Origin: an uncultured Eubacteriales bacterium | GTDB lineage: Bacteria; Actinomycetota; Coriobacteriia; Anaerosomatales; JAAXUF01 | NCBI GenBank assembly: GCA_964521195.1 | Contig: CAZFRE010000001.1 | Span: 334,317 to 398,316 of the forward strand | Direction of reading: 5' to 3' | DNA: 64,000 nucleotides | Part shown: positions 29,119-49,809 of the stretch, in pieces | Position numbering within the stretch: position 1 is the stretch's first letter | Layout of the letters: every line of letters starts with the position of its first letter | The notes under the pieces: generated by a model | What the model was told of the DNA's origin: nothing | Seen by the model: the letters and a program-made list of their open reading frames with translations, nothing else | Database searches by the model: none | Program-made: the position numbers and the translations under genes

Positions 29119-29226
29119 ACGAGCAATGTATCGCCAGGGCGGGGTGTCCCGGTGGCTTGCAGGGGGAGCGTCGACCGTCGCCTGCGCCAGCCGCAGACCA
29201 CCCGGACCTTGCAGAGGAGGACGGGT

Positions 29227-31251
29227 ATGGCAGCGCAGGGCATCTCGGCACCATCGGGCATCATCACTCGCGGCGGCCAGATCACGCCGTTTGAGCTTGA
29301 GAAGATCCGCTCGGCGATCGAGCGCGCGGGCAAGGCCACCAACGAGTTCGACGGGGACGAGGCCGACCTGCTTGCCAAGCAGGCGTTCAAGGTGCTCGCG
29401 CACCGCTTCGCCGACGCGCCGCCGCACATCGAGCAGATCCAGGACGTCGTCGAGCAGGTGCTGATCAGCGCCAACCACTTCGCGACGGCCCGTGCCTACA
29501 TCGTCTACCGAGAGCAGCGCGCCCGCCTGCGCGAGGACAAGCGCACCGTCGTCGAGGTCGAGAGCTCGATGAACGAGTACCTGTCGCGGGCCGACTGGCG
29601 GGTCAACGCCAACGCGAACCAGGGCTACTCGCTCGGCGGGCTGATCCTGAACGTGTCGGGCAAGGTCGTCGCGAACTACTGGCTCTCGCACGTCTACCCG
29701 CGCGAGGTCGGTCAGGCGCACCGCGACGGCGACGTCCACATCCACGACCTCGACATGCTCGCCGGCTACTGCGCGGGCTGGTCGCTGCGCACGCTGCTCA
29801 ACGAGGGCCTCAACGGCGTGCCCGGCAAGATCGAGTCGGGTCCCCCCAAGCACCTGTCGAGCGCCGTGGGCCAGATCGTGAACTTCCTCGGCACGCTGCA
29901 GAACGAGTGGGCTGGCGCGCAAGCGTTCAGCTCGTTCGACACGTACATGGCCGCGTTCGTGCGCAAGGACTCGCTGTCCTACGACGACGTGCGCCAGTCG
30001 ATCCAGGAGCTCGTCTACAACCTCAACGTCCCCTCGCGGTGGGGCACGCAGACGCCGTTCACGAACCTCACCTTTGACTGGACGTGCCCGGACGACCTCA
30101 AGGATGAGTACCCGATCATCGGCGGAGAGATCTGCGACTTCACCTACGGCGAGCTGCAGGCCGAGATGGACATGATCAACCGCGCCTACATCGAGGTCAT
30201 GACCGCGGGCGACGCCAAGGGCCGCGTCTTCACGTTCCCGATCCCGACGTACAACATCACGCCCGAGTTCCCCTGGGAGTCCGAGAACGCCGCGCTGCTC
30301 TTCGAGATGACGGCGAAGTACGGGCTTCCGTACTTCCAGAACTTCCTGAACTCCGAGCTCAAGCCGAACATGGTGCGCTCGATGTGCTGCCGCCTGCAGC
30401 TCGACCTCACCGAGCTGCTCAAGCGCGGCAACGGCCTCTTCGGCTCCGCCGAGCAGACCGGGTCACTCGGCGTCGTGACCATCAACTGCGCCCGTCTCGG
30501 CCACCTGTACGCGGGCAACGAGACGGCGCTGTATGCGGCGCTCGACACGCTGCTCGAGCTCTCGCGCACCTCGCTCGAGCTCAAACGCAAGGTCATCCAG
30601 CACCACATCGACGGCGGGCTGTTCCCGTACACCAAGCGCTACCTCGGCACGCTGCGCAACCACTTCTCGACGATCGGGGTCAACGGCCTCAACGAGATGG
30701 TGCGCAACTTCACCGGCGACGCGCACGACATCACGACGCCGGAAGGCCACGCGATGGCGGTACGCTTCCTCGACCACGTGCGCGAGCAGATCACGCGCTT
30801 CCAGGAGGAGACCGGGCACCTCTACAACCTTGAGGCCACGCCCGCGGAGGGCACCACGTACCGCTTCGCCCGTGAGGACAAGAAGCGCTACCCGGAGATC
30901 CTGCAGGCCGGCACGGCCGACAACCCGTACTACACCAACTCTTCGCAGCTGCCGGCTGGCTTCACCGACGACCCCTTCGAGGCGCTCTCGCGCCAGGAGG
31001 AGCTGCAGCGCAAGTACACCGGCGGCACCGTGCTGCACCTGTACATGGGCGAGCGGGTCTCCTCGGCGGAGGCGTGCAAGAAGCTCGTGAAGCGCTCGCT
31101 CGAGAACTTCCGCCTGCCCTACATCACGATCACCCCGACGTTCTCGGTCTGCCCCGTCCACGGCTATCTCGCCGGTGAGCACGAGTACTGTCCCGTCTGC
31201 GACGAGGAGATCGCCGAGAAGAAGCGGCTCGAAGCCGCGTCATGCTGCTGA
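29227..31251 (+). CDS. nrdD: anaerobic ribonucleoside-triphosphate reductase, large part (lacks the glycyl-radical loop)
   Basis: ATP-cone-like N-terminus (ITPFELEKIRSAIERA). Class III RNR core. C-terminal Zn site CPVH...CPVC. The ORF stops 17 codons after CPVC, with no RxxGY motif. Confidence 0.85.
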   Translation: MAAQGISAPSGIITRGGQITPFELEKIRSAIERAGKATNEFDGDEADLLAKQAFKVLAHRFADAPPHIEQIQDVVEQVLISANHFATARAYIVYREQRARLREDKRTVVEVESSMNEYLSRADWRVNANANQGYSLGGLILNVSGKVVANYWLSHVYPREVGQAHRDGDVHIHDLDMLAGYCAGWSLRTLLNEGLNGVPGKIESGPPKHLSSAVGQIVNFLGTLQNEWAGAQAFSSFDTYMAAFVRKDSLSYDDVRQSIQELVYNLNVPSRWGTQTPFTNLTFDWTCPDDLKDEYPIIGGEICDFTYGELQAEMDMINRAYIEVMTAGDAKGRVFTFPIPTYNITPEFPWESENAALLFEMTAKYGLPYFQNFLNSELKPNMVRSMCCRLQLDLTELLKRGNGLFGSAEQTGSLGVVTINCARLGHLYAGNETALYAALDTLLELSRTSLELKRKVIQHHIDGGLFPYTKRYLGTLRNHFSTIGVNGLNEMVRNFTGDAHDITTPEGHAMAVRFLDHVREQITRFQEETGHLYNLEATPAEGTTYRFAREDKKRYPEILQAGTADNPYYTNSSQLPAGFTDDPFEALSRQEELQRKYTGGTVLHLYMGERVSSAEACKKLVKRSLENFRLPYITITPTFSVCPVHGYLAGEHEYCPVCDEEIAEKKRLEAASCC

Positions 31252-31295: not shown

Positions 31296-31487
31296 ATGAG
31301 CCACACCGACGACACCGCCCCCGAACTGCAGCTCCAGCCCGTCCTCTCCGATGAGGAGCGCCAGCCCTGTGAGATCTGGACGCGCGTGATGGGCTACCAC
31401 CGCCCGGTCGCGTCGTTCAACGCCGGCAAGAAGGGCGAATTCGCCGAGCGCACCTGCTTCACCGAGGACCGTGCCGAGCTCAACTAG
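31296..31487 (+). CDS. stand-alone NrdD glycyl-radical domain (63 aa)
   Basis: CEIWTRVMGYHRPVASFNAGKKGEFAER matches the class III RNR C-terminal glycyl-radical consensus (..R..GY.RPV...N.GK..EF..R). It is in a different frame from nrdD. Confidence 0.65.
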   Translation: MSHTDDTAPELQLQPVLSDEERQPCEIWTRVMGYHRPVASFNAGKKGEFAERTCFTEDRAELN

Positions 31488-32232
31488 CGACACGCGTGCG
31501 GCGGGCGCCTGGGACCAGCGCGACGCAGGGGCCCAGAGCCTGCCCGCCGCACCGCTGCGCGTCGCCGGGGTGTCGCCGCTTTCGAGCGTGGATTGGCCCG
31601 GCGAGCTTGCTGCGACGGTGTTCCTGCAGGGCTGCCCGTGGCGCTGCCCGTACTGCCACAACCCGCACCTGCAGGGCGTTGAGGGCGGCGATGCGCTCGA
31701 ATGGGGCGGCGTCCTCGACTTCCTGCGCGCACGCGTGGGCCTGCTCGACGGGGTCGTCTTCAGCGGCGGTGAGCCGACCGCGCAGAAGGCGCTCGCTGCC
31801 GCGATCGAAGAGGTGCGCGAGCTCGGGTTCCGCGTCGCGCTGCACACCGGAGGGCCGGTGCCCGCGCGCGTGACCGAAGTGCTGCCGCTGCTGGACTGGG
31901 TCGGCTTCGACCTCAAGGCCCCCTTCGAGGAATACGAGCGCATCACCCACGTGCCGCGCAGCGGCGACGCTGCGCGCGAGAGCCTGTTGGCGGTGGTGGC
32001 GAGCGGGGTCGCGTACGAGGTGCGAACGACGGTGCACCCGGCACTGCTCGATGAGGGCGCGTTGACGCGGATGGCCGATGAACTCGCGGCGCTCGGCGTG
32101 CACGAGTGGGTGCTGCAGCCGTTTCGCGCCGCGGGGTGCGCCGACGAGGGACTGCTGGCGACGGGGCCGGCGACGCTCGGGCTACCAGCCGATCTGCTCG
32201 GCCGAGTGGTCGACGTCTCGATCCGCGAGTAG
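31471..32232 (+). CDS. nrdG: anaerobic ribonucleotide reductase activating radical-SAM protein
   Basis: SSVDWPGELAATVFLQGCPWRCPYCHNP (CxxxCxxC). GTG start overlaps the preceding ORF. Confidence 0.85.
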   Translation: MPSSTSDTRAAGAWDQRDAGAQSLPAAPLRVAGVSPLSSVDWPGELAATVFLQGCPWRCPYCHNPHLQGVEGGDALEWGGVLDFLRARVGLLDGVVFSGGEPTAQKALAAAIEEVRELGFRVALHTGGPVPARVTEVLPLLDWVGFDLKAPFEEYERITHVPRSGDAARESLLAVVASGVAYEVRTTVHPALLDEGALTRMADELAALGVHEWVLQPFRAAGCADEGLLATGPATLGLPADLLGRVVDVSIRE

Positions 32233-32607: not shown

Positions 32608-32652
32608 ATGTCAGGGGCGCGTCATGACCGCCCCGTAGCAAGAGGAGGACGC

Positions 32653-33642: not shown

Positions 33643-33645
33643 CCG

Positions 33646-34662: not shown

Positions 34663-35933
34663 TGCCTACACCCCTGACTCCAGCACTGCTGTCATACGAG
34701 GCGGCCGCGGTCGGCTATGCCGCCGCACCGGTCGTGTCGGAGGCGACGTTGCAGGTCCACGCGGGCGAGGTCGTGGGGCTCGTCGGTCCGAACGGCGCGG
34801 GCAAGTCCACGCTTCTGCGCGCTGTGACCGGTGACGCCGAGATCCTCGGCGGGGCGCTCTACGTGGGTGGAACCGAAGTGCGGGTGCTCGCGCCACTCGA
34901 CCGAGCGCGGCTTGTCGGCGTCGTACCGCAGCAGGTCACAGCGGCCTTCGCGCTTCCGGCGCGCGAGTACGTCGAGATGGGCCGATACGCACACCTGCCG
35001 CGCTTCTCGGCGCTCGGCGAGGCGGATCGCGCCGTCGTCGACGAAGCACTCGACCTCACCGATACCAAGCATCTCGCGTCGCGTCCGACCGATGAGCTGT
35101 CCGGCGGCGATCTGCAACGGCTCGCGCTCGCGCAGGCGCTCGCGCAGCAGCCGCGCATGCTGCTGCTTGACGAGCCGGTCAGTCATCTCGACTTGAACCA
35201 CCGCCTGCAGGTGCTCGACCTCGTGCGGCAGTTCGCCGCGGAGCGCGACATCGGAGTCCTCGCCGTCTTCCACGACCTCGACCTCGCGGCGCGGTACGCG
35301 GACCGTGTGAGCATCGTCGCTGGCGGGCGTCTGGGCGAGGCGCAACCGCCGGAGCAGGTGATCACCGCCGAGTCCCTCAGGACCGTCTTCGGCGTTCGCG
35401 CCGTGGTGGGGACCGACCCGGTCACCGGGTCGGTGAGCGTGACGCCCGTGCTGCGCGAAGGCGCGGTTGCAGCTGGCGGGCGCGGAACGGTGCTCGTGAT
35501 CGGCGGGTCCGGCGCGGCAGCTCCGCTGCTACGACGCCTCGTCCTGGCCGGGTGGGACGTCAGCGCGGGAGCGCTCAACGCTGGCGACGCCGACCAGATC
35601 CTCGCCGAGGCGCTCGGCGTACCCTACGTCGCTCTGTCGCCATTCGCGCCCATGGACGAGACCGCCGCCGAGAAGACCGCTGCCATCGCCCGCGAGGCGG
35701 ACGCGGTGATCGTATGCCAGGTGCCTTTCGGGCACGGCAACGTCGCAAATCTCGCGGCCGCCGCCGAGGCCGCCCGTGCCGGACGGCGCGTGGTGCTGGT
35801 AGGCGACATCGAGGGGCGCGACTACACCGGGGGCACGGCTGCGGTGCTGTGGGAGAAGGCGCTCGCCGCGGGGGCGATCACCGTAGCCGATGCGGAGCAC
35901 GCCTTCGACGAACTGAGCGGCATCGCGGGGTAG
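34659..35933 (+). CDS. ABC ATPase (BtuD/FepC-like) fused to an uncharacterised ~165-aa C-terminal domain
   Basis: Walker A GPNGAGKST, signature LSGGDLQR, Walker B LLLDEP. An additional alpha/beta-like domain starts at about residue 260 (VLVIGGSGAAAPLLRRLVLAGWDV...). Confidence 0.8.
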   Translation: MMPTPLTPALLSYEAAAVGYAAAPVVSEATLQVHAGEVVGLVGPNGAGKSTLLRAVTGDAEILGGALYVGGTEVRVLAPLDRARLVGVVPQQVTAAFALPAREYVEMGRYAHLPRFSALGEADRAVVDEALDLTDTKHLASRPTDELSGGDLQRLALAQALAQQPRMLLLDEPVSHLDLNHRLQVLDLVRQFAAERDIGVLAVFHDLDLAARYADRVSIVAGGRLGEAQPPEQVITAESLRTVFGVRAVVGTDPVTGSVSVTPVLREGAVAAGGRGTVLVIGGSGAAAPLLRRLVLAGWDVSAGALNAGDADQILAEALGVPYVALSPFAPMDETAAEKTAAIAREADAVIVCQVPFGHGNVANLAAAAEAARAGRRVVLVGDIEGRDYTGGTAAVLWEKALAAGAITVADAEHAFDELSGIAG

Positions 35934-36069: not shown

Positions 36070-39000
36070 ATGCTGAGAATGCGTTGGGCACTGGTCGCGC
36101 TTGCGGCCGCCGCGCTGGTCACCATCGCGGGGGTGCTCGGCGTGCCCTTCCCAACGGCGCTGTCGCAGCCGTCCGTCGCCCGGCCGTTGGCCCAACCTGC
36201 AGACGTGTCGATCGCGCAGGAGAGCGCGTGTGTGTCGAACGCGCTGTCCATGCCCGGCGTATCGGCGACCTCGACGGCTGCCATCAGTGCGCTCGGCTCG
36301 CAGTTGCCCGCAGTCGCACGACGATACGGCATGACCCCTGAAGTACTCGAGCAGACGCTGCTCTCGGATTCCACACTCAACGTGGATCGGCGAGGCGCGC
36401 TCTTCTACGTCGAGCCTGCGCCCGAGGTGGATGCCCCGCCCTCGATCTCCGAGATGGACTCGGCGGTGCAGCGAGACGCCGCCGCCGCGCCCTTCCCGCT
36501 GTCGCAGACGTTCATGCTTCACAGCCGACCTGGTGCCGAGCGCACGATCCTGCTCGACTTCAAGGGCATGCGCATGTCCGGCAATGCCTGGACCGCGAGC
36601 TACAACGGCGGGGCCGACATCGTGTGTCCACCGTTCTCCCTCGATGGGAGCCCCTCCTTCAGCGAGGCCGAGCAGGCCATCATCCAAGAGGTCTGGCAGC
36701 GGGTGGCCGAGGACTACGCCCCGTTCGACATCGACGTGACCACCGAGTTCACCAGTGAGGAAGTCATCACGCGGAGCTCATCCGCCGACCGAATCTACGG
36801 CACGCGAGCCCTCATCAGCCCGATCAGCGACAAGATTCCGGATGCCGCGGGCATCGCCTATGTCGGAGCCTTCAACGACATCGGCGACTACTACAAGCCG
36901 GCGCTGGTGTTCCCAGAATCCTGGGGCAACACGGCGAAGGATATCGCGCAGACGACGTCGCATGAGTGCGGCCACAACCTCGCGCTTCTCCACGATGGCA
37001 CCTCCGCGATCGAGTACTACCCCGGCGGGAACGGCTGGGCGCCAATCATGGGCCAAGGTCACTACGAAAGCCTCACCCAGTGGAGCAAGGGCGAGTATTC
37101 GGGAGCGAACAACTTCCAAGACGACCTCGCGCTCATCGCTGCGATGTCCGGTTTCCGTGCCGACGATGCCGCCGGAAGCCGCGAGAACGCCGCTGAGCTG
37201 CAGGTAGGTTCGTCCATCTCAGCGGCCGGCGTCATCACCGATGCGGGGGATGCCGACTACTACCGGTTCGTGGCAGGCGCGGGCCCGGCGGCGATCAGCA
37301 TCGTGCCTGCACCGAGCGGCCCGAACCTCGATATCGCGGCCGAGCTGCTGGATGCGAATGGCGCCGTAGTCGCATCGAGCGACTCGGCCTCGACACTGTC
37401 CGCCAGGATCAGCGTGCCCATCTCCCAGGGGGTCTACTACATCCGCGTCCGAGGCACCGGAAAAGGCGACCCTCTCACCACCGGGGGGTACTCGAACTAC
37501 GCCAGTGTCGGTCAGTACACCCTCTCAGGCAGCGTCCCCGCGATTCCGCCGCCCACGACCACCCTCACAGCGGTTCCCTCGGCGGCACTCAGTGGCTGGG
37601 TGTCCGGTGACGTGACGATCACCCTCACGGCGGTCAGCTCCATGGATCCAGTCGCCCGCACGAGCTACACGGTGGACGGGTCGGCGGAGCAGGACTACGC
37701 ATCTCCATTCCGCGTCACAGGCGATGGCGCCGTGCCGGTCACATACCACTCGTTCAGCAACCTCGGAATCGCCGAGACCGTGCGCACAGCGACCGTCTAT
37801 CTCGACAACTCCTCGCCGGTCACGGGTCCCACCAACATGCGCGCGATGTATCGAGTCTCGTCGGGGGCGACCATCGCGCTCGCAGCCAACGATCCACAGT
37901 CCGGCGTGGCATCGACGCGCTGGAGGCTCGGCTCGGCAAGCACATTCACCTCCGGTGCGGCTGTGCCGGTGCCGAGTCAGGCGGGCACCTACACCGTGCA
38001 GTACTACTCGGTCGACAAGGTCGGTAACGTTGAGCCCACGAAGTCCCTGAGCTTTGCGGTCGTGAACGATTCCACGCCGCCGAGGACGACCAGTGACGCG
38101 GCGGCCACCTATGACACGTCGGCACGCGTGACACTCGTCGCCACAGACACGGGAATCGGCGTCGAGTCGACTCACTGGCTCCTCGACGGGGCCGCAGGAA
38201 CCGGCACGACTGTCGACGTCCTTGACTATGGATCCCACGAGCTGCGGTTCTGGTCGGTCGACGCCGCCGGCAACGCCGAGACACCGACGACAGTGACGCT
38301 GTTCGTTCGGGATGTGAACTCGCCGACGGTGTGCGCGAGCGCGGACTACGCTTGGCTGAACGGGATGTCTGTGGAGTTCCAAGCCGCTGACGAGTCCCAC
38401 GGCAGCGGTCTTGACGTGATCGCGTACCGGCTCGACGGAGCTGAGACGCAGACCATCGCTGCGTCCAACTACGTTCTCACGCCCCGGCGTCCGGGCCGCC
38501 ACGAATGCGTCTACTGGGCCGTCGACAAGGCGGGGAACGCGAGTGCGCTCGCGACGCTCGTGTTCGACGTCATCGCGCCGACCCGCTTCGTGATGGACGC
38601 GATTCCGGCGCCGGTGAAGCCCGGCGTGGAGACGACCATCTCGGGTCGCGTCGACACCGAATCGGTCACCGCCCCGCTTCTCGGCGAGCCCGTGGTGCTC
38701 CAAGTGCTCCGGGACTCCGCGTGGACGAAGGCGCTTCCCTCGCCCGCGCTCGCGCAGGCGGACGGGGCGTTCGCCTTCAGGGTCGCTCCATACGAGAGCG
38801 GCGTGTATCGGGTGATCGTCGGCACTGGGAGCGCGCTGCGAGCCGGGGAGAGCGAGACCTTCGTGATCGGAGCGAAGGCGTCGGTCACGCGGCCGTCCAA
38901 GCCGAATTCTCCGCGCCACCGTCGCGCGTTCACACTCACCGGTTGGGTGATGCCGTCGCTCTCACGGAGCGTGCAGGTCAAGTACTACCGCGTGAAGAGC

Positions 39001-39165
39001 GGGAAACGGACGCTGTACTCCACGAAGACGGCATCGCTGTCGTCGGCGGGGAAATGGACCTACCGGCGCTCGCTTCCCCGCGGATCGTGGGCCGTGCGGG
39101 TGGTCTACACCGATCCGCTGAAGGTCGTCAGCACCAGCAGCTACCGGTCCTTCACGGTGAAGTAG
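36070..39165 (+). CDS. secreted reprolysin/adamalysin-like zinc metalloprotease with PPC domain, Ig-like repeats and shared C-terminal beta-sandwich
   Basis: Signal peptide. HECGHNLALLHDG (HExxHxxxxxHD). Pre-peptidase C-terminal-like block (DADYYRF...YYIRVRG...YTLSG). The stalk is collinear with that of 4891..7662. Confidence 0.8.
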   Translation: MLRMRWALVALAAAALVTIAGVLGVPFPTALSQPSVARPLAQPADVSIAQESACVSNALSMPGVSATSTAAISALGSQLPAVARRYGMTPEVLEQTLLSDSTLNVDRRGALFYVEPAPEVDAPPSISEMDSAVQRDAAAAPFPLSQTFMLHSRPGAERTILLDFKGMRMSGNAWTASYNGGADIVCPPFSLDGSPSFSEAEQAIIQEVWQRVAEDYAPFDIDVTTEFTSEEVITRSSSADRIYGTRALISPISDKIPDAAGIAYVGAFNDIGDYYKPALVFPESWGNTAKDIAQTTSHECGHNLALLHDGTSAIEYYPGGNGWAPIMGQGHYESLTQWSKGEYSGANNFQDDLALIAAMSGFRADDAAGSRENAAELQVGSSISAAGVITDAGDADYYRFVAGAGPAAISIVPAPSGPNLDIAAELLDANGAVVASSDSASTLSARISVPISQGVYYIRVRGTGKGDPLTTGGYSNYASVGQYTLSGSVPAIPPPTTTLTAVPSAALSGWVSGDVTITLTAVSSMDPVARTSYTVDGSAEQDYASPFRVTGDGAVPVTYHSFSNLGIAETVRTATVYLDNSSPVTGPTNMRAMYRVSSGATIALAANDPQSGVASTRWRLGSASTFTSGAAVPVPSQAGTYTVQYYSVDKVGNVEPTKSLSFAVVNDSTPPRTTSDAAATYDTSARVTLVATDTGIGVESTHWLLDGAAGTGTTVDVLDYGSHELRFWSVDAAGNAETPTTVTLFVRDVNSPTVCASADYAWLNGMSVEFQAADESHGSGLDVIAYRLDGAETQTIAASNYVLTPRRPGRHECVYWAVDKAGNASALATLVFDVIAPTRFVMDAIPAPVKPGVETTISGRVDTESVTAPLLGEPVVLQVLRDSAWTKALPSPALAQADGAFAFRVAPYESGVYRVIVGTGSALRAGESETFVIGAKASVTRPSKPNSPRHRRAFTLTGWVMPSLSRSVQVKYYRVKSGKRTLYSTKTASLSSAGKWTYRRSLPRGSWAVRVVYTDPLKVVSTSSYRSFTVK

Positions 39166-39452: not shown

Positions 39453-39905
39453 TCAGCGCTTGTGCGCTCGCGCGGCCTTCTCGGCGTCCTTGACCATCGC
39501 GTCCCAGCCGGGCTCGCAGATCAGTTCCCACGTGCAGCCGTGGCATGCGTCCGCCCGCCACGTGCCCACGCCGATCGCGTCGGCTTCGAGTCGTTCGCGC
39601 GCGGCCTCAAGCGACAGCCTGTCGCCGGGGGCCACACCCAGCACGTCGCACGCGAGCGCGTCGATGCGCGCGATCTCATCCTCGCCGCCCGCGCCTTCGC
39701 TCGCACACCGGCTATCAGTCCCGAGTTCGGGGCACGCCGCGCACACGTTATCGACACCCGGGACGATCAGCGCCGGAGCCGATTCCGCGTGCCCGATCAC
39801 GTGCTCGAGGTTGGCGACGAAGTCGTCGGAGTAGCCCTCGCCGCGGAAGAACTGCAGGCAGATCAGGTGGTGGCCGCGGAGCCGGACCAGAGGCGCCGCG
39901 CTCAC
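39453..39905 (-). CDS. DUF1284-family (Cys-rich, putative Fe-S) protein
   Basis: LRGHHLICLQFF.GEGYS..F..N.... and C..CP...C, ...CHGC.W blocks. GTGA overlap with the upstream MBL gene. Confidence 0.55.
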   Translation of the reverse strand: MSAAPLVRLRGHHLICLQFFRGEGYSDDFVANLEHVIGHAESAPALIVPGVDNVCAACPELGTDSRCASEGAGGEDEIARIDALACDVLGVAPGDRLSLEAARERLEADAIGVGTWRADACHGCTWELICEPGWDAMVKDAEKAARAHKR

Positions 39906-40720
39906 AGGTGCTCCTCCGGGAACAGCGTCGACTGGGCGGGATCGGAGTCGAGCGGCTCGTGCTGTGGGGCGACGTGCACCGGTACGCTCAGGCCGATCGC
40001 CGTCAGCCGAGCGACGAGCGCGCGCTTCGCGAGCGAGGGCGTGTTGTTCGTGTCCGAGCGGTGGAGCGCGATGATGCGCCGCAACCTCGAGGACGCCAGC
40101 GACTCGACGGCGTCCGCAGCGTCCGGGTTCGACAGGTGCCCCTGGGCCGAGCGGATCCTGCGCTTGAGGTAGCTCGGGTACGGCCCGTTGTCCAGCATCC
40201 CGAGGTCGTGGTTGCTCTCGATGCCGAGCAGGTCGACGTCGGCGAGCGCCTCGGCCGCCTCGGGGGTCACGACCCCCGTGTCGGTCGCCAGGCCGAACCG
40301 CTCGCCGGCCGCATTCTGTACGCGGTAGCCGACCGGCTCGGCGGCGTCGTGTGACGTCCTGAACGGCAGCACCGTGAGGGAGCCGATCCGCAGCTCCTCG
40401 CCCGTGCGCAGCGTGCAGACCTCGCTGCCGAGACAGTCGAGTCCCGCCGCCATGCGCGTGCCGCGGGTGGCGTGCACCGCGCAGCCATGCCGGCGCGCGA
40501 ACACTTCGACCCCGCGCAGGTGGTCCGAGTGCTCGTGTGTGAGCAGGACCGCCCGCACCGAGTTCGCATCGAGGCCGGCGAGCGCCATTCGTCGAGCGAC
40601 CTCGCGGGCCGAGAACCCGCAGTCGATGAGCAGCGTGGTGTCGCCGTCGGTCACGGCGACGGAGTTGCCGCCGGAACCGGAGCCGAGCACGACCACGCGA
40701 AGGGGAGTGGTATCGGGCAT
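39902..40720 (-). CDS. MBL-fold metallo-hydrolase (YycJ/WalJ-like)
   Basis: VLGSGSGGN...LIDCG......LLTHEHSDH. Confidence 0.8.
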   Translation of the reverse strand: MPDTTPLRVVVLGSGSGGNSVAVTDGDTTLLIDCGFSAREVARRMALAGLDANSVRAVLLTHEHSDHLRGVEVFARRHGCAVHATRGTRMAAGLDCLGSEVCTLRTGEELRIGSLTVLPFRTSHDAAEPVGYRVQNAAGERFGLATDTGVVTPEAAEALADVDLLGIESNHDLGMLDNGPYPSYLKRRIRSAQGHLSNPDAADAVESLASSRLRRIIALHRSDTNNTPSLAKRALVARLTAIGLSVPVHVAPQHEPLDSDPAQSTLFPEEHL

Positions 40721-40888
40721 GCGGGCAGTGTACACCGCTCCGGTGACATCTCCTCACGAACACCACAGCTTCCCGGCGCTGCCGCGGCGATTATCGGGAA
40801 TAGAACTCCTAGCAAACCCACCGGGCCGATCCGACACCGGCCCGTCAGCGTTCGTGCACCACCTGCACGACCGGAGCGAGGAGCGACG

Positions 40889-41134
40889 ATGGCTGTCCAC
40901 CTGTACGCGCTGTCCACCTGCCCGTACTGCCGCATGACGAAGAAGTACCTCGACGAGCATGAGATCGCGTACGAGATGACCGAAGTCGACCTGCTCGAGG
41001 GTGACGAGAAGGACGCCGCGGTCGCTGAGGTCGTTCGGCTGTCGGGCGGCAAGTCCTTCCCGGTGCTCGATGCGGACGGTCAGGTGGTCGTCGGTTTCAA
41101 CAAGGGGCGCATGGCCCAGGTCCTCGGGCTGTAG
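40889..41134 (+). CDS. glutaredoxin-like small redoxin (CPYC)
   Basis: 81 aa. LYALSTCPYCRMTKKYL...FPVL...VVGFN. GAGGAG lies upstream. Confidence 0.8.
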   Translation: MAVHLYALSTCPYCRMTKKYLDEHEIAYEMTEVDLLEGDEKDAAVAEVVRLSGGKSFPVLDADGQVVVGFNKGRMAQVLGL

Positions 41135-41143
41135 GCCACGCAC

Positions 41144-41827
41144 ATGACCGCCGAGAAGCCCGGGCGCCGCGTCTTCTTCGCCGGCACCACCATCGACGAC
41201 CTGAAGGCCTACATGGGCCCGTTCGCCGAGCGTCTCGGCTACAAGTTCAACACCGAGACCGACTTCGTCGACGAGGTGCTGATCAGTGAGCTCGAGATCC
41301 TTGAGCGAGACGGGGACGTCTACTGCCCATGCCGGATACGCAGTGGGGATCCCAAAGAAGACGCGCAGATCGTCTGTCCGTGCATCCCGTTCTACCGCGA
41401 CGAGTTCGCAGCTATCCGCAAGTGCTGGTGCGGGCTCTTCATACTCTCTGACGTCGAGGATGGCGCCGACCTCATCGGCGTGCTCGACGAGGTGGAACCG
41501 GGCACCGTGGTCGACGTACCGGTCGCGACGCTCGCCGACCTCGCCCCCGGCACGCCTCGCCACGTCAAGATCGGGAAGCGCGACATCGCGGTGGTGCGAG
41601 TCGGCGAGGAGGTGTTCGCGCTGTCGAACCTCTGCCGGCACGCGTTCGGGCCCCTCGCCGAGGGGTTCGTCGATGGCTATCACCTGATGTGCCCGTGGCA
41701 TGGGTGGCGCTACGACGTCCGCGATGGGACCACCGATCATCCCAATGCCGATGTCGCGACGTTTCCGGTAGCGGTTCGCGACGGCGTCGTGTTGGTCTCG
41801 ATACCGCTCGGCCGCTCGCGGCGCTGA
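41144..41827 (+). CDS. ferredoxin:thioredoxin reductase catalytic-subunit-like domain fused to a Rieske [2Fe-2S] domain
   Basis: CPC(61-63)-x14-CPC(78-80)-x13-CWC(94-96)GLF, compared with the FTRc CPC-x16-CPC-x8-CHC pattern. C-terminal Rieske motif CRH(164-166)-x16-CPWH(183-186). Starts 9 nt after the glutaredoxin stop. Confidence 0.75.
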   Translation: MTAEKPGRRVFFAGTTIDDLKAYMGPFAERLGYKFNTETDFVDEVLISELEILERDGDVYCPCRIRSGDPKEDAQIVCPCIPFYRDEFAAIRKCWCGLFILSDVEDGADLIGVLDEVEPGTVVDVPVATLADLAPGTPRHVKIGKRDIAVVRVGEEVFALSNLCRHAFGPLAEGFVDGYHLMCPWHGWRYDVRDGTTDHPNADVATFPVAVRDGVVLVSIPLGRSRR

Positions 41828-41939
41828 AGGCCACAGGCCTCGAGACGCTGGGGTGGCGACGCCGCTACCTCGGCCGGCGTAGCGCGAGATACTCCCTCGG
41901 GTGCATGCGTCGCCTCGGCAGGGGGGCTACTATCGACCC

Positions 41940-43202
41940 ATGAGCCCCACACCGAACAAGCCCCGCAAAGCGCTCTCCGCAGCCGTATCCGACGTGCTTC
42001 TCGCCGTCGGTCTCGCAGCCGCGAGCGCCATCTCGGTGGCGTTGCGGGTGCCGCTCTTCATCCGCGGCGGCGGATTCGGGGGAGGGCCCGGCGTCGACCC
42101 GCCGAACGTACCCGATGCCGCCGTGCGGGCCGCCATAGAGCGACCGGAGCTCGCCGTCTACAGCATCCCGCTTGCGGCCGTGGCGTTCCTGCCTCTCGCC
42201 GTGCGGCGACGCTTCCCGGTTCCGGTGCTGGCGGTCGTGGTCGCGATCGCTGCCGTCAACGACCTGCTTCCCGGGCCACCCTCGCTCGTCTTTCTCGCGC
42301 CACTCATCGCCCTGTACACGGTGGGTACCGAGCGTTCGCGCACGACCCTCGTGTGGTCGGCATTGTTCGCGGCCGCGGTCCAGCTTGCCGTGAACCTTCC
42401 GCATCACGCCGGCGTGACGTACTGGGCGGACGTCGTGCGCATCGTCTCGATGGTGACGGTGGCCGCCGCGTTGGGCGATGCCACCCGAACGCGCCGCGCC
42501 TACGTTGCCGAGGTCGAGCAGCGCGCGATCGAGGCCGAACGCACGCGGGACGAGGAGGCCCGACGCCGTGTGGACGAGGAGCGGCTGCGGATCGCCCGCG
42601 AGCTGCACGACGTCACGGCACACTCGCTGTCCATCATCGCCGTGCAGTCGGGCGCCGCCGCGCACGTCATCGACACGAACCCGGCGGAGGCGCGCCGCTC
42701 GCTCGAGGCGATCCGGCAGACCAGCAAGCAAGCCCTCGACGAGCTGCGCTCGATGCTCGGCGTGCTCCGCTCGGCCGATGAACCCGACGCGCCGCTGGCG
42801 CCTGCACCGGGCCTGGCGCGCCTCGACGAGCTCGCGGTGCCGATGCGCGAAGCCGGCATCGACGTGACGCTCGACGTCGATGACGACCTGGGCGAGATCC
42901 CGGCGCTGGTGGACGCATCCGCCTACCGCATCGTCCAGGAAGCGCTCACGAACGTGGTGCGCCACGCCGGCCCCTGCGCGGCGCGAGTGGTGGTGAAGAG
43001 AGCCAACGGCGACCTGGTGCTCCAGGTGACCGACGACGGCGCGGGCACGCGGGCGGCGACCAATGCCGAGGGCCACGGCATCGAAGGTATGCGCGAGCGC
43101 GCCGTGGCACTGGGTGGCGCGTTCGAGTCGGGGCCGCTCGCCGACGGCGGCTTCCGCGTGAGCGCCAGGCTGCCGGTGGGCGCCCGGGGCGGGCGGGCGT
43201 GA
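41940..43202 (+). CDS. sensor histidine kinase (HisKA_3 / NarL-partner type)
   Basis: Multi-TM N-terminus. RIARELHDVTAHSLS H-box. HATPase blocks. Confidence 0.85.
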   Translation: MSPTPNKPRKALSAAVSDVLLAVGLAAASAISVALRVPLFIRGGGFGGGPGVDPPNVPDAAVRAAIERPELAVYSIPLAAVAFLPLAVRRRFPVPVLAVVVAIAAVNDLLPGPPSLVFLAPLIALYTVGTERSRTTLVWSALFAAAVQLAVNLPHHAGVTYWADVVRIVSMVTVAAALGDATRTRRAYVAEVEQRAIEAERTRDEEARRRVDEERLRIARELHDVTAHSLSIIAVQSGAAAHVIDTNPAEARRSLEAIRQTSKQALDELRSMLGVLRSADEPDAPLAPAPGLARLDELAVPMREAGIDVTLDVDDDLGEIPALVDASAYRIVQEALTNVVRHAGPCAARVVVKRANGDLVLQVTDDGAGTRAATNAEGHGIEGMRERAVALGGAFESGPLADGGFRVSARLPVGARGGRA

Positions 43203-43882
43203 TGTCGGAGCGTATCCGCGTGCTCGTCGCCGACGATCAGGCGCTCGTTCGGGGCGGGTTCCGCGTCCTGGTGGACTCATCCCCCGACCTCGAGGTCGTG
43301 GGTGAGGCTTCCGACGGCGCCGAGGCGCTTGCGCTTGCGCGAAAGCTGACGCCCGACGTCGTGCTGATGGACATCCGGATGCCGGTCAAGGACGGCATCG
43401 AAGCCACTCGTGAGATCGCACAGGATCCGACAACCGCCGAGACCCGCGTGCTCATCCTCACGACGTTCGATCTCGACGAGTACGTCTACGAGGCGCTGCG
43501 GGCCGGCGCGAGCGGCTTCCTTCTCAAAGACACCGAGCCGAACGCGCTGCTCGATGCGATCCGGGTCATCGCGTCGGGAGATGCGCTCCTGGCACCGTCG
43601 GTGACACGCCGGCTGATCGCCGAGTTCGCGCACCGGCCTTCACCGAGCAAGGTGAGCGCTGCCCATCTCGAGGCGCTGACCGGGCGTGAGCGTGAGGTGC
43701 TGGCGCTCGTCGCGCGCGGGCTCTCCAACGCAGAGATCGCCGCCGAGCTGTTCATCAGCCCTGCCACAGCCAAGACCCACGTGAGTCGCGTGATGATGAA
43801 GCTCGCGGCGCGCGATCGCGCCCAGCTCGTCGCCATCGCGTACGAGGCGGGCGTCGTCGCGCCCGGCACCTCCGGCGAGTAG
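43202..43882 (+). CDS. response regulator, NarL/LuxR family
   Basis: RVLVADDQ...D.....DVVLMDIRMP. C-terminal LTGREREVL.LVARGLSN.EIA helix-turn-helix. Confidence 0.9.
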   Translation: MSERIRVLVADDQALVRGGFRVLVDSSPDLEVVGEASDGAEALALARKLTPDVVLMDIRMPVKDGIEATREIAQDPTTAETRVLILTTFDLDEYVYEALRAGASGFLLKDTEPNALLDAIRVIASGDALLAPSVTRRLIAEFAHRPSPSKVSAAHLEALTGREREVLALVARGLSNAEIAAELFISPATAKTHVSRVMMKLAARDRAQLVAIAYEAGVVAPGTSGE

Positions 43883-44084: not shown

Positions 44085-45479
44085 ATGAACGCCGAGGCAG
44101 CGCCGCGCGCAGCGGCCCGCAAGCGCACGAGCCGCGCGGTCATCGGCCTGGTCGTCGCGCTCGTGCTCGTCGGCGCCGGCGTCGCGGCCTTCACCGTGCT
44201 CCGGTCGAGCTCGACGCCCACATCCAGCGTCTCCACCGCCGTCGCCGAGCGACGGACACTCAGCGTCTTGGTCTCGGGAACCGGCACCACGGTGGTCTCC
44301 GACTCCGTGACGGTCAATCCCAAGATCAGTGGCACGGTCAAGAAGCTCTACGTCAGCCTCGGCGAGACCGTGACCGCAGGCGACAAGCTGTACACGATCA
44401 CGAGTGACGACGTCGAGACGTCCCGGCTTCAGGCGAAGGCCTCGCTCCTGCAGTCCAAACAAAGCCTCGCGCAGGCCGAGGGAAGCAAGACGCAGGCGAA
44501 CAACCAGCTCTACAGCGCCAACACGGCGCTCATCGAAGCCGAGCAGAACCTCGACGCCCTGCGCAGCCAACCCGAGACGGCCGGACTCGACGACAAGATC
44601 ACGATCGCCAAGCGCCAGGTGACCAGCGCGAAGAAGAGCGTCGCAAGCGCCGAGGACAGCGTCGACTCCGCATCGATCGGCATCGAGGTCGCGCAGGCGA
44701 ACTACACCTCGGCCAAGCAGTCCTACGAAGACGCGGTCGACGCGACGCACGACACGGTCGTCGAGGCACCCATCGACGGCGTGGTCACCGAACTGCCCAT
44801 CTCGGTGGGCTCGGACGTCAACGCAGGCACCACGAGCACGTCCTCCGGCGGCTCGACCGGCGCTGCGGCGACCGGGAGCTCCTCGTCGAGCGCGTCATCA
44901 GGCAGCTCGGGATCGTCCATCACGATCTCGGACATGGGCAGTCTCGAGGTCGAGGTCTCAGTCAGCGAGGCCGACATCACATCGGTCGCCGTCGACCAGA
45001 CCGCCACCGTCACGTTCGACGCACTGGACGACACCGAGTTCACCGGCACCGTGAAGTCCATCTCTCCCAACGGCACGAGTTCCTCCGGTGTCGTCAATTT
45101 CACCGTCACGCTGTCGCTCGACCGCCAGGACGACCGGCTCCGTCCCGACATGACCGCCACCGCCGATATCGCGACACAGGTCGCCGAGAATGTCGTCGCG
45201 GTGCCGGTCGCTGCCGTGAGATCCAGCGACGGCGAGAAGTACGTGATCGTGATGAACGGCGCACAGCAGTCCAACACCCCGGTGACTGTCGGCGTCAGTG
45301 ATGACTCGTATGTCGAGATCGAGAGCGGCCTGTCCGAGGGTGACGTCGTCGTCACCGGGTCGCAGTCAGCGACATCGAACTCGTCGAGCCCTTCTCAGAG
45401 CGATCGCCGCTCCGGCGGCTTCATGATGGGTGGGCCCGGCGGGGGCGCGCCGCCCTCGGGTGGACCGGGTGGCAACTGA
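44085..45479 (+). CDS. HlyD/MacA-type periplasmic adaptor protein
   Basis: N-terminal TM segment. Coiled-coil hairpin. Beta-barrel blocks (A.V.FDAL....F.G.V..I.P). Ser/Gly-rich tail. Confidence 0.8.
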   Translation: MNAEAAPRAAARKRTSRAVIGLVVALVLVGAGVAAFTVLRSSSTPTSSVSTAVAERRTLSVLVSGTGTTVVSDSVTVNPKISGTVKKLYVSLGETVTAGDKLYTITSDDVETSRLQAKASLLQSKQSLAQAEGSKTQANNQLYSANTALIEAEQNLDALRSQPETAGLDDKITIAKRQVTSAKKSVASAEDSVDSASIGIEVAQANYTSAKQSYEDAVDATHDTVVEAPIDGVVTELPISVGSDVNAGTTSTSSGGSTGAAATGSSSSSASSGSSGSSITISDMGSLEVEVSVSEADITSVAVDQTATVTFDALDDTEFTGTVKSISPNGTSSSGVVNFTVTLSLDRQDDRLRPDMTATADIATQVAENVVAVPVAAVRSSDGEKYVIVMNGAQQSNTPVTVGVSDDSYVEIESGLSEGDVVVTGSQSATSNSSSPSQSDRRSGGFMMGGPGGGAPPSGGPGGN

Positions 45480-46174
45480 TGGGCGCGATCATCGAAGTGC
45501 GCGACATGGTCAAGACCTACGTGACCGGCGATACCTACACGATGGCGCTGAAGGGCGTGTCACTGACGGTGCGGGAGGGCGAGTTCCTCGCGATAATGGG
45601 GCCGTCGGGATCGGGCAAGTCGACGCTCATGAACCTCCTGGGCCTGCTCGACACGCCGACGAGCGGGACGTACAGGATCCGCGGCGTCGACGTGTCCGAG
45701 CTCGATGAGATCGAGCTCGCGGAGGCGCGTTCGCGCGAGATCGGGTTCGTATTCCAGTCGTTCAACCTGCTGCCGCGTGCAACGGTGATGCGCAACGTGA
45801 TGCTGCCGCTCGTCTACGCACGCACGCCCGACCGCGAGCGGGAACCCCGCGCGCTCGCCGCGCTCGCAGCGGCCGGACTCCCGCCGGAGTTGCACCACAA
45901 GGGTTCGAACCAACTCTCGGGAGGCCAGATCCAGCGTGTCGCGATCGCACGCGCGCTCATCAACGACCCCGCACTCATCCTCGCAGACGAGCCGACAGGC
46001 AACCTCGACACCGTGACCGGCGACCACATCCTCGCCACGTTCAAGCGCCTCAAGGAGCAGGGCCGTACCATCGTCCTCATCACGCACGAACCCGAGGTGG
46101 CAGAGCACGCGGATCGCACCATCCACATCCGAGACGGGCTCGTCACCGACGAGGTGGGGGTGGGACACCGATGA
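45479..46174 (+). CDS. MacB/LolD-type ABC ATPase
   Basis: GPSGSGKSTL, LSGGQIQRVAIARAL, ILADEPTGNLD. Confidence 0.9.
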   Translation: MGAIIEVRDMVKTYVTGDTYTMALKGVSLTVREGEFLAIMGPSGSGKSTLMNLLGLLDTPTSGTYRIRGVDVSELDEIELAEARSREIGFVFQSFNLLPRATVMRNVMLPLVYARTPDREREPRALAALAAAGLPPELHHKGSNQLSGGQIQRVAIARALINDPALILADEPTGNLDTVTGDHILATFKRLKEQGRTIVLITHEPEVAEHADRTIHIRDGLVTDEVGVGHR

Positions 46175-47394
46175 GGCTCAAAGACCTCCTCGCCGAGACC
46201 TTCCTGTCGCTTACTGCGAACAAGGCCCGCTCCTTCCTGACGGTGCTCGGCATCGTCGTGGGCATAACGTCGGTCATCGTCATGGTCGGGTTCGGACAGG
46301 GCACGAAGGCGTCGATCGAGGGAAGCATCTCCTCGATGGGTGCGAACCTGCTCATGGTCTCTCCCGGTGGCCAGATGAGCCGCATGGTCGGCGGCGGCGG
46401 TGCAGGGGCGAGTACGAACTCGCTCACGCTCAAAGACGTCGCCGCCATCGAATCGCAGGTGGGCAACATCAAGCGCGTCGCGCCGACGACGTCGGGGTCG
46501 TATCAGGTGTCGGCAGAGGCCAGCAACACGAACGTGACGGTCACAGGCACGACCTCCGACTATCAAGCAATCCGCAACCTGAGCCTGCAGGCGGGGAGCT
46601 GGTTCAGCGAGGACCAGAACGCCGGTGGGGCGCGCGTCGCGGTGCTCGGCCCGACGACCGCCGAGACGCTCTTCGGTGACGCGGCGTCGGCGGTTGGCCA
46701 GAAGATCCGCATCAATGCGCAGCCGTTCACGGTCATCGGCGTCACGGTGTCGAAGGGCAGCAACGGGATGCAGAGCCAGGACGATGCCGCCTACATCCCG
46801 TACGAGACGTTCTCGAATCACCTGTCGAGTTCGACCGGGGTCTCGATGGTCTACGTCGAGGCCGAGAGCCAGGACGTCATGTCGCAGGTCGAAGCGGACC
46901 TCGAGAGCCTGCTACTTGCTCGCCACGGCATCGATGACTCGGACAGCGCTGACTTCTCGATCATGAATCAGGAGGACATCGCGTCGACCCTGTCCACCGT
47001 CACCACGACGCTCACGATCCTGCTCGGCTCCATCGCCGGCATCTCACTCGTGGTGGGCGGCATCGGCATCATGAACATGATGCTGACGACGGTCACCGAG
47101 CGCATCCGCGAAATCGGTCTTCGCAAGGCGCTCGGGGCCACCCGCTCGGACCTTACGTCGCAGGTCCTCGCCGAGGCGGTCGCGCTCACGCTCACGGGTG
47201 GCGTGATCGGCATCCTCCTCGGCTGGCTGATCTCGCTCGCCATCACGGCGCTGTCGAGCTACGCGACCACCGTGAGCCTCATGTCCGTGCTGCTGGCGGT
47301 CGGCGTCTCGACGGCGATCGGTGTCGTCTTCGGCTACTACCCGGCGCGGCGTGCGGCCAAGCTCGATCCGATCGACGCACTCAGATACCAGTAG
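46171..47394 (+). CDS. MacB/FtsX-type ABC permease
   Basis: MacB_PCD plus an FtsX C-terminus (...GGIGIMNMMLTTVTERIREIGLRKALGA...). Confidence 0.9.
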   Translation: MRLKDLLAETFLSLTANKARSFLTVLGIVVGITSVIVMVGFGQGTKASIEGSISSMGANLLMVSPGGQMSRMVGGGGAGASTNSLTLKDVAAIESQVGNIKRVAPTTSGSYQVSAEASNTNVTVTGTTSDYQAIRNLSLQAGSWFSEDQNAGGARVAVLGPTTAETLFGDAASAVGQKIRINAQPFTVIGVTVSKGSNGMQSQDDAAYIPYETFSNHLSSSTGVSMVYVEAESQDVMSQVEADLESLLLARHGIDDSDSADFSIMNQEDIASTLSTVTTTLTILLGSIAGISLVVGGIGIMNMMLTTVTERIREIGLRKALGATRSDLTSQVLAEAVALTLTGGVIGILLGWLISLAITALSSYATTVSLMSVLLAVGVSTAIGVVFGYYPARRAAKLDPIDALRYQ

Positions 47395-49392: not shown

Positions 49393-49809
49393 ATGCGAGT
49401 ACCACAGAGTCTCGACTACGCCGTGCGTGCGCTCGTGCTGCTCGCCCTGCGACCCGATGGTGATTACATCGCCGCGGGCGATCTAGCCGACCGGCTGGGC
49501 CTGCCGCGGCGGTTCGTCGAGCAACAGATCACCTCGCTTTCACGCGCGGGGATCGTCCACTGTCGCCGAGGAGCCAACGGCGGCTGCGCCCTCGCGAGGC
49601 CTGCTCAAGACGTCACCGTATTCGATATCGTCGAGGCCGTGCAGGGCGAGGTTCTGGACGTGCCGCACGTGACCGGCTCGGCGGCTTCGCTCCTTTGGCA
49701 ACAGGCTGCCGGCCAACTAGCAGCGTTTCTGCAAGGGGTGACCCTTCACGCGCTGGCCGAGAGCCAGAGAGAGCTTGATGGTGCCGGAGCGCACATGTAT
49801 TGGATTTGA
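49393..49809 (+). CDS. Rrf2-family transcriptional regulator (CymR-like context)
   Basis: DYAVRALV.LA............LP..F..QI...L..AG.V...RG..GG. Starts 2 nt after cysK. Confidence 0.8.
   Translation: MRVPQSLDYAVRALVLLALRPDGDYIAAGDLADRLGLPRRFVEQQITSLSRAGIVHCRRGANGGCALARPAQDVTVFDIVEAVQGEVLDVPHVTGSAASLLWQQAAGQLAAFLQGVTLHALAESQRELDGAGAHMYWI

Follow-up and report, generated by a model that had tools for sequence, protein, structure and literature searches.

A redoxin gene paired with a ferredoxin:disulfide reductase–Rieske fusion gene in Coriobacteriia suggests a Rieske-linked thiol/disulfide relay

Introduction

The locus described here, part of a 64-kb window of DNA (the window being the whole stretch of 64,000 nucleotides that was analysed) from an uncultured member of the Coriobacteriia, raises the question of why a Rieske [2Fe-2S] centre should be attached to an enzyme that appears to be built to act on disulfides. 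It consists of two adjacent genes, one for a small redoxin with a CPYC motif and one for a fusion protein. The N-terminal half of the fusion resembles the catalytic subunit (FTRc) of ferredoxin:thioredoxin reductase (FTR) and the related ferredoxin:disulfide reductases (FDRs), and its C-terminal half is a Rieske domain. To our knowledge, FTR-type enzymes are the only catalysts that split a disulfide with an iron–sulfur cluster and single electrons, and we know of no electron source for them so far other than free ferredoxin or a fused rubredoxin. Since the usual place of Rieske proteins is with oxygenases and bc complexes, one would not expect a dedicated Rieske partner in this setting.

An initial annotation of the window had read the two genes as a self-contained, two-gene disulfide-reducing relay. 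Comparative genomics, through a conserved gene cassette and alternative fusions of the same components, bears out a relay of three parts, whereas self-containment is not supported, as described below. The relay is supported by domain identities, ligand invariance, operon linkage, co-localisation across phyla and alternative fusions, and we regard it as very probable that the Rieske centre, the [4Fe-4S]-disulfide site and the CxxC redoxin work as parts of one system. The direction in which electrons pass through it is taken up in the Discussion.

A pair of genes on the plus strand

Both open reading frames (ORFs) were found where the initial annotation had placed them, an 81-residue CPYC redoxin followed after 9 nt by a 227-residue fusion protein. 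The spacer, from the redoxin stop codon to the ATG of the fusion gene, was read directly from the sequence. The redoxin protein begins MAVHLYALSTCPYCRM, and a Shine-Dalgarno-like element 5′ of its gene is a putative ribosome-binding site. A scan of the GC-rich region 40600-42000 for consensus promoters and terminators found none. The features of the pair are as follows.

40878..40883, plus strand: Shine-Dalgarno-like GAGGAG, 5 nt 5′ of the redoxin start codon
40889..41134, plus strand: gene for the glutaredoxin-fold redoxin, 81 aa (ORF and Pfam)
40919..40930, plus strand: CPYC redox motif, C11-P-Y-C14 of the redoxin (sequence)
41144..41827, plus strand: gene for the FDR(CWC)::Rieske fusion, 227 aa (ORF and Pfam)
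41198..41464, plus strand: FTRc-like/FDR-like domain, aa 19-107 (Pfam FeThRed_B)
41324..41332, plus strand: C61-P-C63, aligned to C55-P-C57 of Synechocystis FTRc
41375..41383, plus strand: C78-P-C80, two predicted [4Fe-4S] ligands by alignment
41423..41431, plus strand: C94-W95-C96, with C94 a predicted cluster ligand and C96 the predicted cluster-proximal redox-active Cys by alignment
41516..41806, plus strand: Rieske [2Fe-2S] domain, aa 125-221, soluble ferredoxin type (Pfam, PDB, Foldseek)
41633..41641, plus strand: Rieske box 1, C164-R-H166 (invariant)
41690..41701, plus strand: Rieske box 2, C183-P-W-H186 (C and H invariant)

By profile, the redoxin has the glutaredoxin (Grx) fold with an N-terminal CxxC, and by score it falls outside the NrdH and YruB families. 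It matches Pfam Glutaredoxin (PF00462) with E=1.3e-12 and 48.1 bits against a cut-off of 22.9. Its top NCBIfam match, the YruB family (TIGR02196), scores 55.1 bits and stays under the cut-off of 88.55, as does the match to NrdH-redoxin (TIGR02194; 43.2 bits, cut-off 85.75). NrdH-redoxins carry the motifs C[VM]QC and WSGFRP; the present protein has CPYC at the active site and no WSGFRP. JGI annotates several members of its cluster as "NrdH". In a sequence search of the PDB it matched the N-terminal domain of 7PWE, a solved Grx/FDR fusion (E=1.7e-7). Matches to the designer repeat proteins Cake3-Cake10 were set aside as an artefact of summed weak matches to a 20-residue repeat. We propose this redoxin as the dithiol/disulfide partner of the FDR domain.

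Domain content of the fusion protein

Residues 19-107 of the fusion match Pfam FeThRed_B (PF02943; E=3e-18, 66.2 bits against a cut-off of 22) and residues 125-207 match Rieske (PF00355; E=4.4e-19, 68.6 bits against 20.3); the Pfam check that the initial annotation had named thus placed both domains above their curated cut-offs. The N-terminal half carries the cysteine pattern C61-P-C63, x14, C78-P-C80, x13, C94-W-C96-G-L-F, and the motif string CPC-x14-CPC-x13-CWC-GLF given earlier is exact. In HMMER alignments to the solved structures 2pvd, 7bzk, 4tpu and 7pwe, the six cysteines fall on the cluster and disulfide cysteines. With residue roles taken from the alignment to Synechocystis FTRc and from established FTR structures, C61, C78, C80 and C94 are the predicted [4Fe-4S] ligands, and C63, the exposed nucleophile, would form the redox-active disulfide with C96. 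Although JGI names the fusion "ferredoxin-thioredoxin reductase catalytic chain", the closest PDB sequence matches of this half are 4tpu_A (E=3e-10) and 7pwe_A (E=4e-10), with the cyanobacterial and plant FTRc proteins at only E=0.004-0.01.

All six cysteines and W95 are invariant in 122 full-length members of the family. A search with a profile of the domain gave 1,233 proteins, mostly stand-alone, of about 110 aa and from anaerobes, and the pattern CPC-x14-CPC-x13-CWC-GL[FY] is exact in every one of the 120 best of these 1,233 matches. Sources of the CWC proteins are Elusimicrobia, Omnitrophica, Terriglobia, Thermodesulfobacteriota, Methanolobus, Methanocella, Methanomethylovorans and Nanoarchaeota. 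Judged by its motif, the N-terminal domain of the fusion belongs to a sharply defined CWC subfamily, which we define here. W95 aligns with the His of the cyanobacterial and plant CHC motif and with the Tyr of 4TPU and 7PWE. The initial annotation was therefore correct that a Trp stands at the position of the FTR His, but not in treating this as a one-off replacement: since 4TPU and 7PWE carry CYC and CWC is found throughout the subfamily, the Trp is no isolated loss of a catalytic His.

The C-terminal half is a complete Rieske domain with the box spacing CRH-x16-CPWH, as had been read from the sequence at the outset, and the Pfam match, the invariant ligands and matches to the fold of soluble Rieske ferredoxins concur on this. 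Ligands C164, H166, C183 and H186 are invariant in the 122 full-length homologues, and PDB sequence matches of this half include CarAc (E=4e-13). The boxes read CRHAFG...CPWHGWRY, in which neither extra Cys of the bc1 type is present, the Ser is replaced by Trp and the Tyr after box 2 is retained. By these residues the fused Rieske is placed outside the high-potential bc1/b6f type, the extra Cys pair and the Ser of that type being absent and the Tyr alone present. A DGTTDHP stretch 3′ of box 2 (aa 195-200, 41726-41743) is invariant in the 122 homologues except at T196; it is probably a loop over the Rieske cluster, where H199 could influence the potential or docking.

An AlphaFold2 (AF2) model of the whole fusion has a mean pLDDT of 88.5 and a pTM of 0.83, the latter consistent with a defined packing of the two domains in the model. 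The C-terminal half of the model superposes on the soluble Rieske ferredoxins of dioxygenase systems (Foldseek TMt 0.67-0.77), and no solved chain in the Foldseek comparison spans both halves (TMq ≤ 0.38). A model of aa 1-120, with a moderate pLDDT of 76, gave 7PWE, 4TPU, 1DJ7, 7C2B and 2PU9 as its only meaningful Foldseek matches (TMq 0.46-0.59), 7PWE being the best. Pfam profile, sequence matches to solved structures and predicted fold agree on the FTRc-type N-terminal half that the initial annotation had proposed.

Conservation of the pair in Coriobacteriia

A large protein database contains 649 homologues of the fusion, and the best 120 of the 649 (74-100% identical) all carry both Pfam domains; the named members come from metagenome-assembled genomes (MAGs) of Coriobacteriia. 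A scan with one genome per species returned 80 fusion loci, all of them from uncultured Coriobacteriia, Anaerosomatales or Actinomycetota MAGs. The two-domain architecture of 220-230 aa and the length of the linker are conserved across more than 80 independent assemblies, and this conservation, together with the E-values, excludes chance. At 50% clustering, full-length FDR::Rieske proteins make up two clusters only (P0121 and P0122), which indicates that the fusion is a narrow, lineage-specific event.

The redoxin gene stands directly upstream of the fusion gene in 79 of the 80 Coriobacteriia genome loci, and the exceptional locus begins 44 nt 5′ of the fusion. CPYC is kept in 80 of 82 redoxin copies, and the spacers of these 82 copies are mostly between -11 and +32 nt, including 4-nt overlaps. 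The two genes form one operon, and the link between the CPYC redoxin and the fusion suggested in the initial annotation proves to be that of a conserved operon partner.

A four-gene cassette in other phyla

A metagenome scan with a profile of the stand-alone CWC FDR gave at least 556 matches, with 80 loci returned. With gene order scored by home-made hidden Markov models (HMMs) for Rieske, Grx and FDR, the same-strand order Rieske-Grx-FDR-Rieske was found in 69 of these 80 loci; most of the other 11 are cut by contig ends, and partial orders account for a few (Rieske-Grx-FDR in 4, Grx-FDR-Rieske in 2). The gene orders in named taxa are as follows.

Elusimicrobia: Rieske-Grx-FDR-Rieske
Omnitrophica: Rieske-Grx-FDR-Rieske
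Thermodesulfobacteriota: Rieske-Grx-FDR-Rieske
Methanocella: Rieske-Grx-FDR-Rieske
Methanolobus: Rieske-Rieske-Rieske-Grx-FDR, then nitroreductase

The same components also occur fused in another way, in a Grx::FDR protein with the CWC motif (P0144) that is flanked by two Rieske genes. With R for Rieske, G for Grx and F for FDR, three arrangements can be distinguished: R,G,F,R as separate genes, R,G::F,R, and G,F::R, the last being the present gene pair. It follows the order of the cassette, with a gene for a Grx-fold CxxC protein directly upstream on the same strand and the Rieske downstream, fused in frame. In the present pair, Coriobacteriia have the widespread Rieske-Grx-FDR(CWC)-Rieske cassette in compact form (G + F::R), and the fusion is of the Rosetta-stone type, joining parts of a conserved module. 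The Rosetta-stone pattern of the three arrangements and the solved Grx/FDR fusion argue strongly for a joint function of the components.

Two further observations concern members of the cassette and of the subfamily. The upstream cassette Rieske carries CxHxxC...CPCH in 69 of 72 loci (L090-L169; for example L088:5421-5735), and the downstream one does not. In bc1/b6f Rieske proteins the same extra Cys pair forms a disulfide on the side of the cluster; such a pair is odd for a small cytoplasmic protein of anaerobes and might constitute a second redox-active disulfide beside an Fe-S cluster. The stand-alone CWC FDR nearest to the fusion domain (P0130, 48% identical, in L084-L086 on Nanoarchaeota-labelled contigs) has neither a Grx nor a Rieske neighbour and lies near a Cas12f1-like TnpB gene and a toxin-antitoxin pair. 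This context indicates that CWC FDRs are not all part of the cassette; a homology search with P0130 alone gave 2 matches only.

Gene neighbourhood

Flavoprotein genes are found near the cassette, namely FMN_red in Methanocella, nitroreductase in Methanolobus, and a gene for a Fer2_4/Pyr_redox_2/BFD protein together with DAO in Elusimicrobia. Since such genes, of different families, recur there, the independence from NAD(P)H flavoenzymes that had been predicted for the relay is not supported. Self-containment is likewise not supported, for the Rieske centre has to exchange electrons with a donor or acceptor from outside, and neither of the two genes encodes one. In 32 of 83 related Coriobacteriia loci, an NDH-2-like Pyr_redox_2 flavoprotein gene divergently adjoins the redoxin gene. 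Its product is, speculatively, a candidate redox partner or reductant of the Rieske centre. A role as a Rieske-ferredoxin reductase of the BphA4 type is disfavoured, the best PDB match being YjlD/NDH-2 (E=1e-44, against 2e-8 for BphA4). The position of this gene in the window and those of three loci upstream of the pair are given here.

59002-60222, minus strand: NDH-2-like flavoprotein gene, 18 kb from the pair (in relatives, L081:8370-9587 and L175:8330-9598)
29152..31251, plus strand: gene for NrdD, a class III ribonucleotide reductase (RNR) with ATP-cone and NRDD domains (Pfam NRDD E=2e-175); candidate client with weak linkage
31471..32232, plus strand: gene for an NrdG-like radical-SAM activase (Pfam Radical_SAM and Fer4_12; tblastn match to nrdG of the relative L083)
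32518-35933: iron/cobalamin-type ABC transporter, after nrdDG

Between the ABC transporter and the pair lies, at 36070-39165 on the plus strand, a gene whose 1031-aa product has PPC and Big_13 domains and a hydrophobic N-terminus; the gene is not present at the corresponding place in the syntenic relative L083. It is followed by a DUF1284 gene and a gene for a metallo-β-lactamase (MBL)-fold hydrolase (39453-39902 and 39902-40735, both on the minus strand), which are upstream of the redoxin gene and divergent from it. In most Coriobacteriia loci the MBL gene is found with the pair, an association that may reflect lineage synteny instead of a functional link. The slot between the MBL and redoxin genes is variable, with an NrfA-like multihaem Cytochrom_C552 gene in L174:7847-9568 and L175:6519-8231 and an ArsC-like LMWPc gene in L081.

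Downstream, a HisKA_3 histidine kinase gene (41901-43202) and a GerE-type response regulator gene (43199-43882), both on the plus strand, begin 74 nt after the fusion gene, and a MacB-type ABC exporter (44085-47394) comes next; conservation of the arrangement is limited to the closest relatives (L001, L006, L007, L010, L021 and L083). Further on, a cysteine-synthase-like PALP gene (48434-49387) precedes a gene for an Rrf2-family regulator (49393-49806) on the plus strand. In about 28 related loci the PALP and Rrf2 genes are found a few kb or less downstream of the fusion gene, which suggests a neighbourhood of sulfur or thiol metabolism. Elsewhere, a peroxiredoxin gene stands directly upstream of Rieske-(Grx::FDR)-Rieske (L170/L171:4056-4667), and genes for glutamate-cysteine ligase (GCS2) and gamma-glutamyl transpeptidase follow directly downstream of the cassette in Thermodesulfobacteriota (L177:4870-7592). 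These contexts hint at peroxide or low-molecular-weight-thiol clients.

Discussion

We infer the following scheme, with its cofactor content, residue roles, Rieske-to-cluster electron transfer and reductive direction. The fused Rieske [2Fe-2S] centre would serve as the dedicated one-electron port of the FTR-type catalytic domain and exchange single electrons with the [4Fe-4S] cluster held by C61, C78, C80 and C94. Two one-electron steps would open the C63-C96 disulfide through a cluster-bound intermediate of the FTR type, and in this way, as with FTR and FDR, one-electron transfers would yield a dithiol/disulfide exchange of two electrons. The C63/C96 dithiol would then exchange with the CPYC motif of the co-encoded redoxin, and the reduced redoxin would serve client disulfides.

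The FDR of Methanosarcina acetivorans (MA1659; 4TPU), the best PDB sequence match of the N-terminal half, shares the FTRc-like domain, CPC-x14-CPC and the lack of a variable subunit, and likewise has a second one-electron metal centre fused at its C-terminus; it differs in that this centre is a rubredoxin-type domain and the motif is CYC with x12, whereas the present fusion has a Rieske domain and CWC with x13. According to PMC6262447, the partner redoxin of the M. acetivorans enzyme is a thioredoxin homologue; in the present pair it would be the adjacent CPYC Grx. In the Grx/FDR fusion of Desulfotalea psychrophila (7PWE), an FDR domain shares its chain with a Grx-fold redoxin of the same subfamily, which shows Grx as the thiol partner of an enzyme of the FDR family. 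There the Grx is fused instead of separate, the motifs are CGFC and CYC instead of CPYC and CWC, and the chain contains no Rieske. Between them, 7PWE and 4TPU provide examples of both kinds of fusion partner in the FDR family. The Rieske ferredoxins CarAc, BphF/BphA3 and TodB, which the C-terminal half matches best in sequence and in fold, share CxH...CxxH and the absence of a bc1-type disulfide. They are free shuttles from an NAD(P)H flavoprotein reductase to an oxygenase in aerobes, whereas the present domain belongs to an anaerobe and is joined to a disulfide-reductase module, and in the box-2 context CPWHGWRY it has a Tyr in place of their usual Phe.

Several points weigh against the reductive scheme. 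Soluble Rieske ferredoxins lie at about -150 mV and the disulfide couples of FTR, Grx and NrdH at about -200 to -250 mV, and transfer from the Rieske to the disulfide would thus be uphill unless the fused Rieske is unusually low in potential. The Trp of the CWC motif cannot assume the acid–base role that has been proposed for His86 of FTR. Among the conserved neighbours at cassette loci, no donor gene is general to the cassette, the neighbours varying by lineage. The lineage of the window also lacks the upstream Rieske gene of the four-gene cassette, with no second Rieske ORF elsewhere in the 64-kb window or in 83 related loci, and the fused Rieske is about equidistant from both cassette types (HMM scores of 65 and 54 bits, and mean distances of 0.76 and 0.75, for upstream and downstream, respectively). 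A relatively positive centre in the FDR family has a precedent in the rubredoxin fused in 4TPU. Because Rieske ferredoxins are more positive than the disulfide couples, our confidence in the reductive direction is lower than in the relay itself, and for the proposal as a whole, direction included, we lean only slightly in its favour.

The alternative that survives best is that the relay runs in an oxidising or sensing mode, the redoxin dithiol being oxidised at the FDR domain and the electrons leaving singly through a higher-potential Rieske; we consider this unlikely. Rieske centres are normally more positive than dithiol couples, yet all characterised FTR and FDR enzymes are reductive. As to the Rieske itself, an extra Cys pair of the bc1 kind marks the upstream cassette protein at 69 of 72 loci, and the Tyr that high-potential Rieske proteins have after box 2 is kept in the fused one (CPWHGWRY); against this, the disulfide Cys pair and the Ser of high-potential types are both missing from the fused Rieske, whose fold agrees with that of low-potential dioxygenase ferredoxins. 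The acceptor might be a flavoprotein, a quinone-linked enzyme or an O2-dependent sink, making the relay a disulfide-generating or redox-sensing device in an anaerobe. The two-component genes (histidine kinase and response regulator) that come directly after the fusion gene in the window and in its closest relatives, and the peroxiredoxin and other stress-type genes near the cassette elsewhere, would suit such a device, but cytoplasmic disulfide generation has no obvious role in strict anaerobes.

A sub-case of the reductive scheme, which we find rather doubtful, is that the pair is the reductant system of the upstream class III RNR, with the Rieske replacing free ferredoxin. A pathway of this kind has been published for Methanosarcina barkeri, in which an NrdH-like redoxin, an FDR and ferredoxin feed a class III RNR (Wei et al. 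2015, as cited in PMC6262447 and PMC9176816). The likeness lies in a small Grx-like redoxin reduced by an FTRc-like [4Fe-4S] enzyme in an anaerobe, in a thiol-dependent class III RNR as client there and in a thiol-type NrdD in the window. Whereas the M. barkeri system has a free ferredoxin donor and its redoxin and FDR genes reportedly share the nrdD operon, the present pair has a fused Rieske, nrdD 10 kb away and weak synteny. Aligned to the NrdD of T. maritima, the window NrdD carries the Y-C and M-C-C-R motifs and in this resembles the NrdDh4 subclass. The NrdDh motifs were defined in PMC4493059, and the subclass includes the thioredoxin-dependent enzyme of Neisseria bacilliformis. On account of these motifs, the window NrdD probably needs a thiol reductant, not formate. 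The genes nrdD and nrdG share the strand of the pair and precede it by about 10 kb, but the ABC transporter and other genes, some oppositely oriented, stand between the two loci, and hence they are not one operon. Only the window, L083, L001 and L069 show nrdDG in synteny with the pair, and L081, L174 and L175 lack it within 10 kb; since the wider 10-kb contexts of these three relatives lack nrdDG, we keep it as a candidate client only. The "NrdH" names that JGI gives to members of the redoxin cluster would also fit this sub-case; set against them are the NrdH score of the redoxin (43 bits against the cut-off of 85.75), the absence of an nrdD-like group among the conserved cassette neighbours and the absence of an NRDD match in the called genes of the named-taxon loci.

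It is very improbable that the N-terminal domain is a classical FTR catalytic subunit for ferredoxin-dependent regulation of thioredoxin, as in cyanobacteria, plants and deeply rooted autotrophs. The FeThRed_B match, the six-Cys motif and the JGI name would all agree with that assignment, and the classical enzyme (1DJ7, 2PVD) does share the six-Cys catalytic design, the [4Fe-4S] cluster beside a disulfide and the fold family. It is, however, a heterodimer with a variable subunit, CHC and x16/x8 spacing, with a free plant-type [2Fe-2S] ferredoxin as donor and WCGPC thioredoxins as acceptors. Here the spacing is x14/x13, the His is missing, similarity to plant and cyanobacterial FTRc is weak (E 0.004-0.01, against 3e-10 for FDR types), the partner has the Grx fold and is not a WCGPC thioredoxin, and the host is an anaerobic Coriobacteriia MAG. 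On spacing, missing His, weak similarity and partner type, we reject the classical assignment. FeThRed_A had no match among the called genes of syntenic relatives within ±10 kb, and no FeThRed_A-specific search of the window was made. By its sequence features, the fusion is a member of the FeThRed_B superfamily and would work in the manner of an FDR or FTR, but it is neither a classical FTR nor an FDR of the Methanosarcina type, having no rubredoxin and no CYC. An assembly or frameshift artefact or a decaying gene can be dismissed with near certainty, given the recurrence of the 220-230-aa architecture in hundreds of independent assemblies, all ligands being invariant, the linker length kept and the Cys pattern conserved in 122 homologues; a frameshift and a non-conserved Cys pattern had been listed in the initial annotation as grounds for doubt.

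Literature searches found no paper that links FTRc or FDR with Rieske proteins, although prior mention of the architecture is still possible. To this extent the initial view of an uncharacterised architecture stands; it had missed the solved Grx/FDR fusion 7PWE and the published M. barkeri pathway, through which the coupling of Grx to FDR is already known. What appears to be new is the dedicated Rieske partner and the cassette of the CWC subfamily.

In summary, the Rieske partnership of these FDR-type proteins is conserved from methanogens to Elusimicrobia and has become a fusion in Coriobacteriia, while the potentials of Rieske centres make the textbook direction awkward. We put forward, tentatively and at less than even confidence, that the cassette and the G + F::R pair constitute a distinct and widespread class of anaerobic thiol/disulfide oxidoreductases in Bacteria and Archaea. 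In this class a Rieske protein, and not ferredoxin or NAD(P)H, would be the obligate one-electron partner, either with an unusually low-potential, proton-coupled Rieske driving the reduction of disulfides or, in reverse, as the first FTR-type dithiol oxidase or redox sensor. With only two proteins and with the Rieske:FDR stoichiometry and docking fixed, the present fusion is a convenient entry point to such a class. If the proposal is true, it would give a function to the "orphan" Rieske ferredoxins of strict anaerobes and offer a natural His-to-Trp variant with which to study the FTR mechanism. Thiol redox networks of anaerobes would also gain a new branch, for input or for output, with class III RNR and peroxiredoxins as possible clients.

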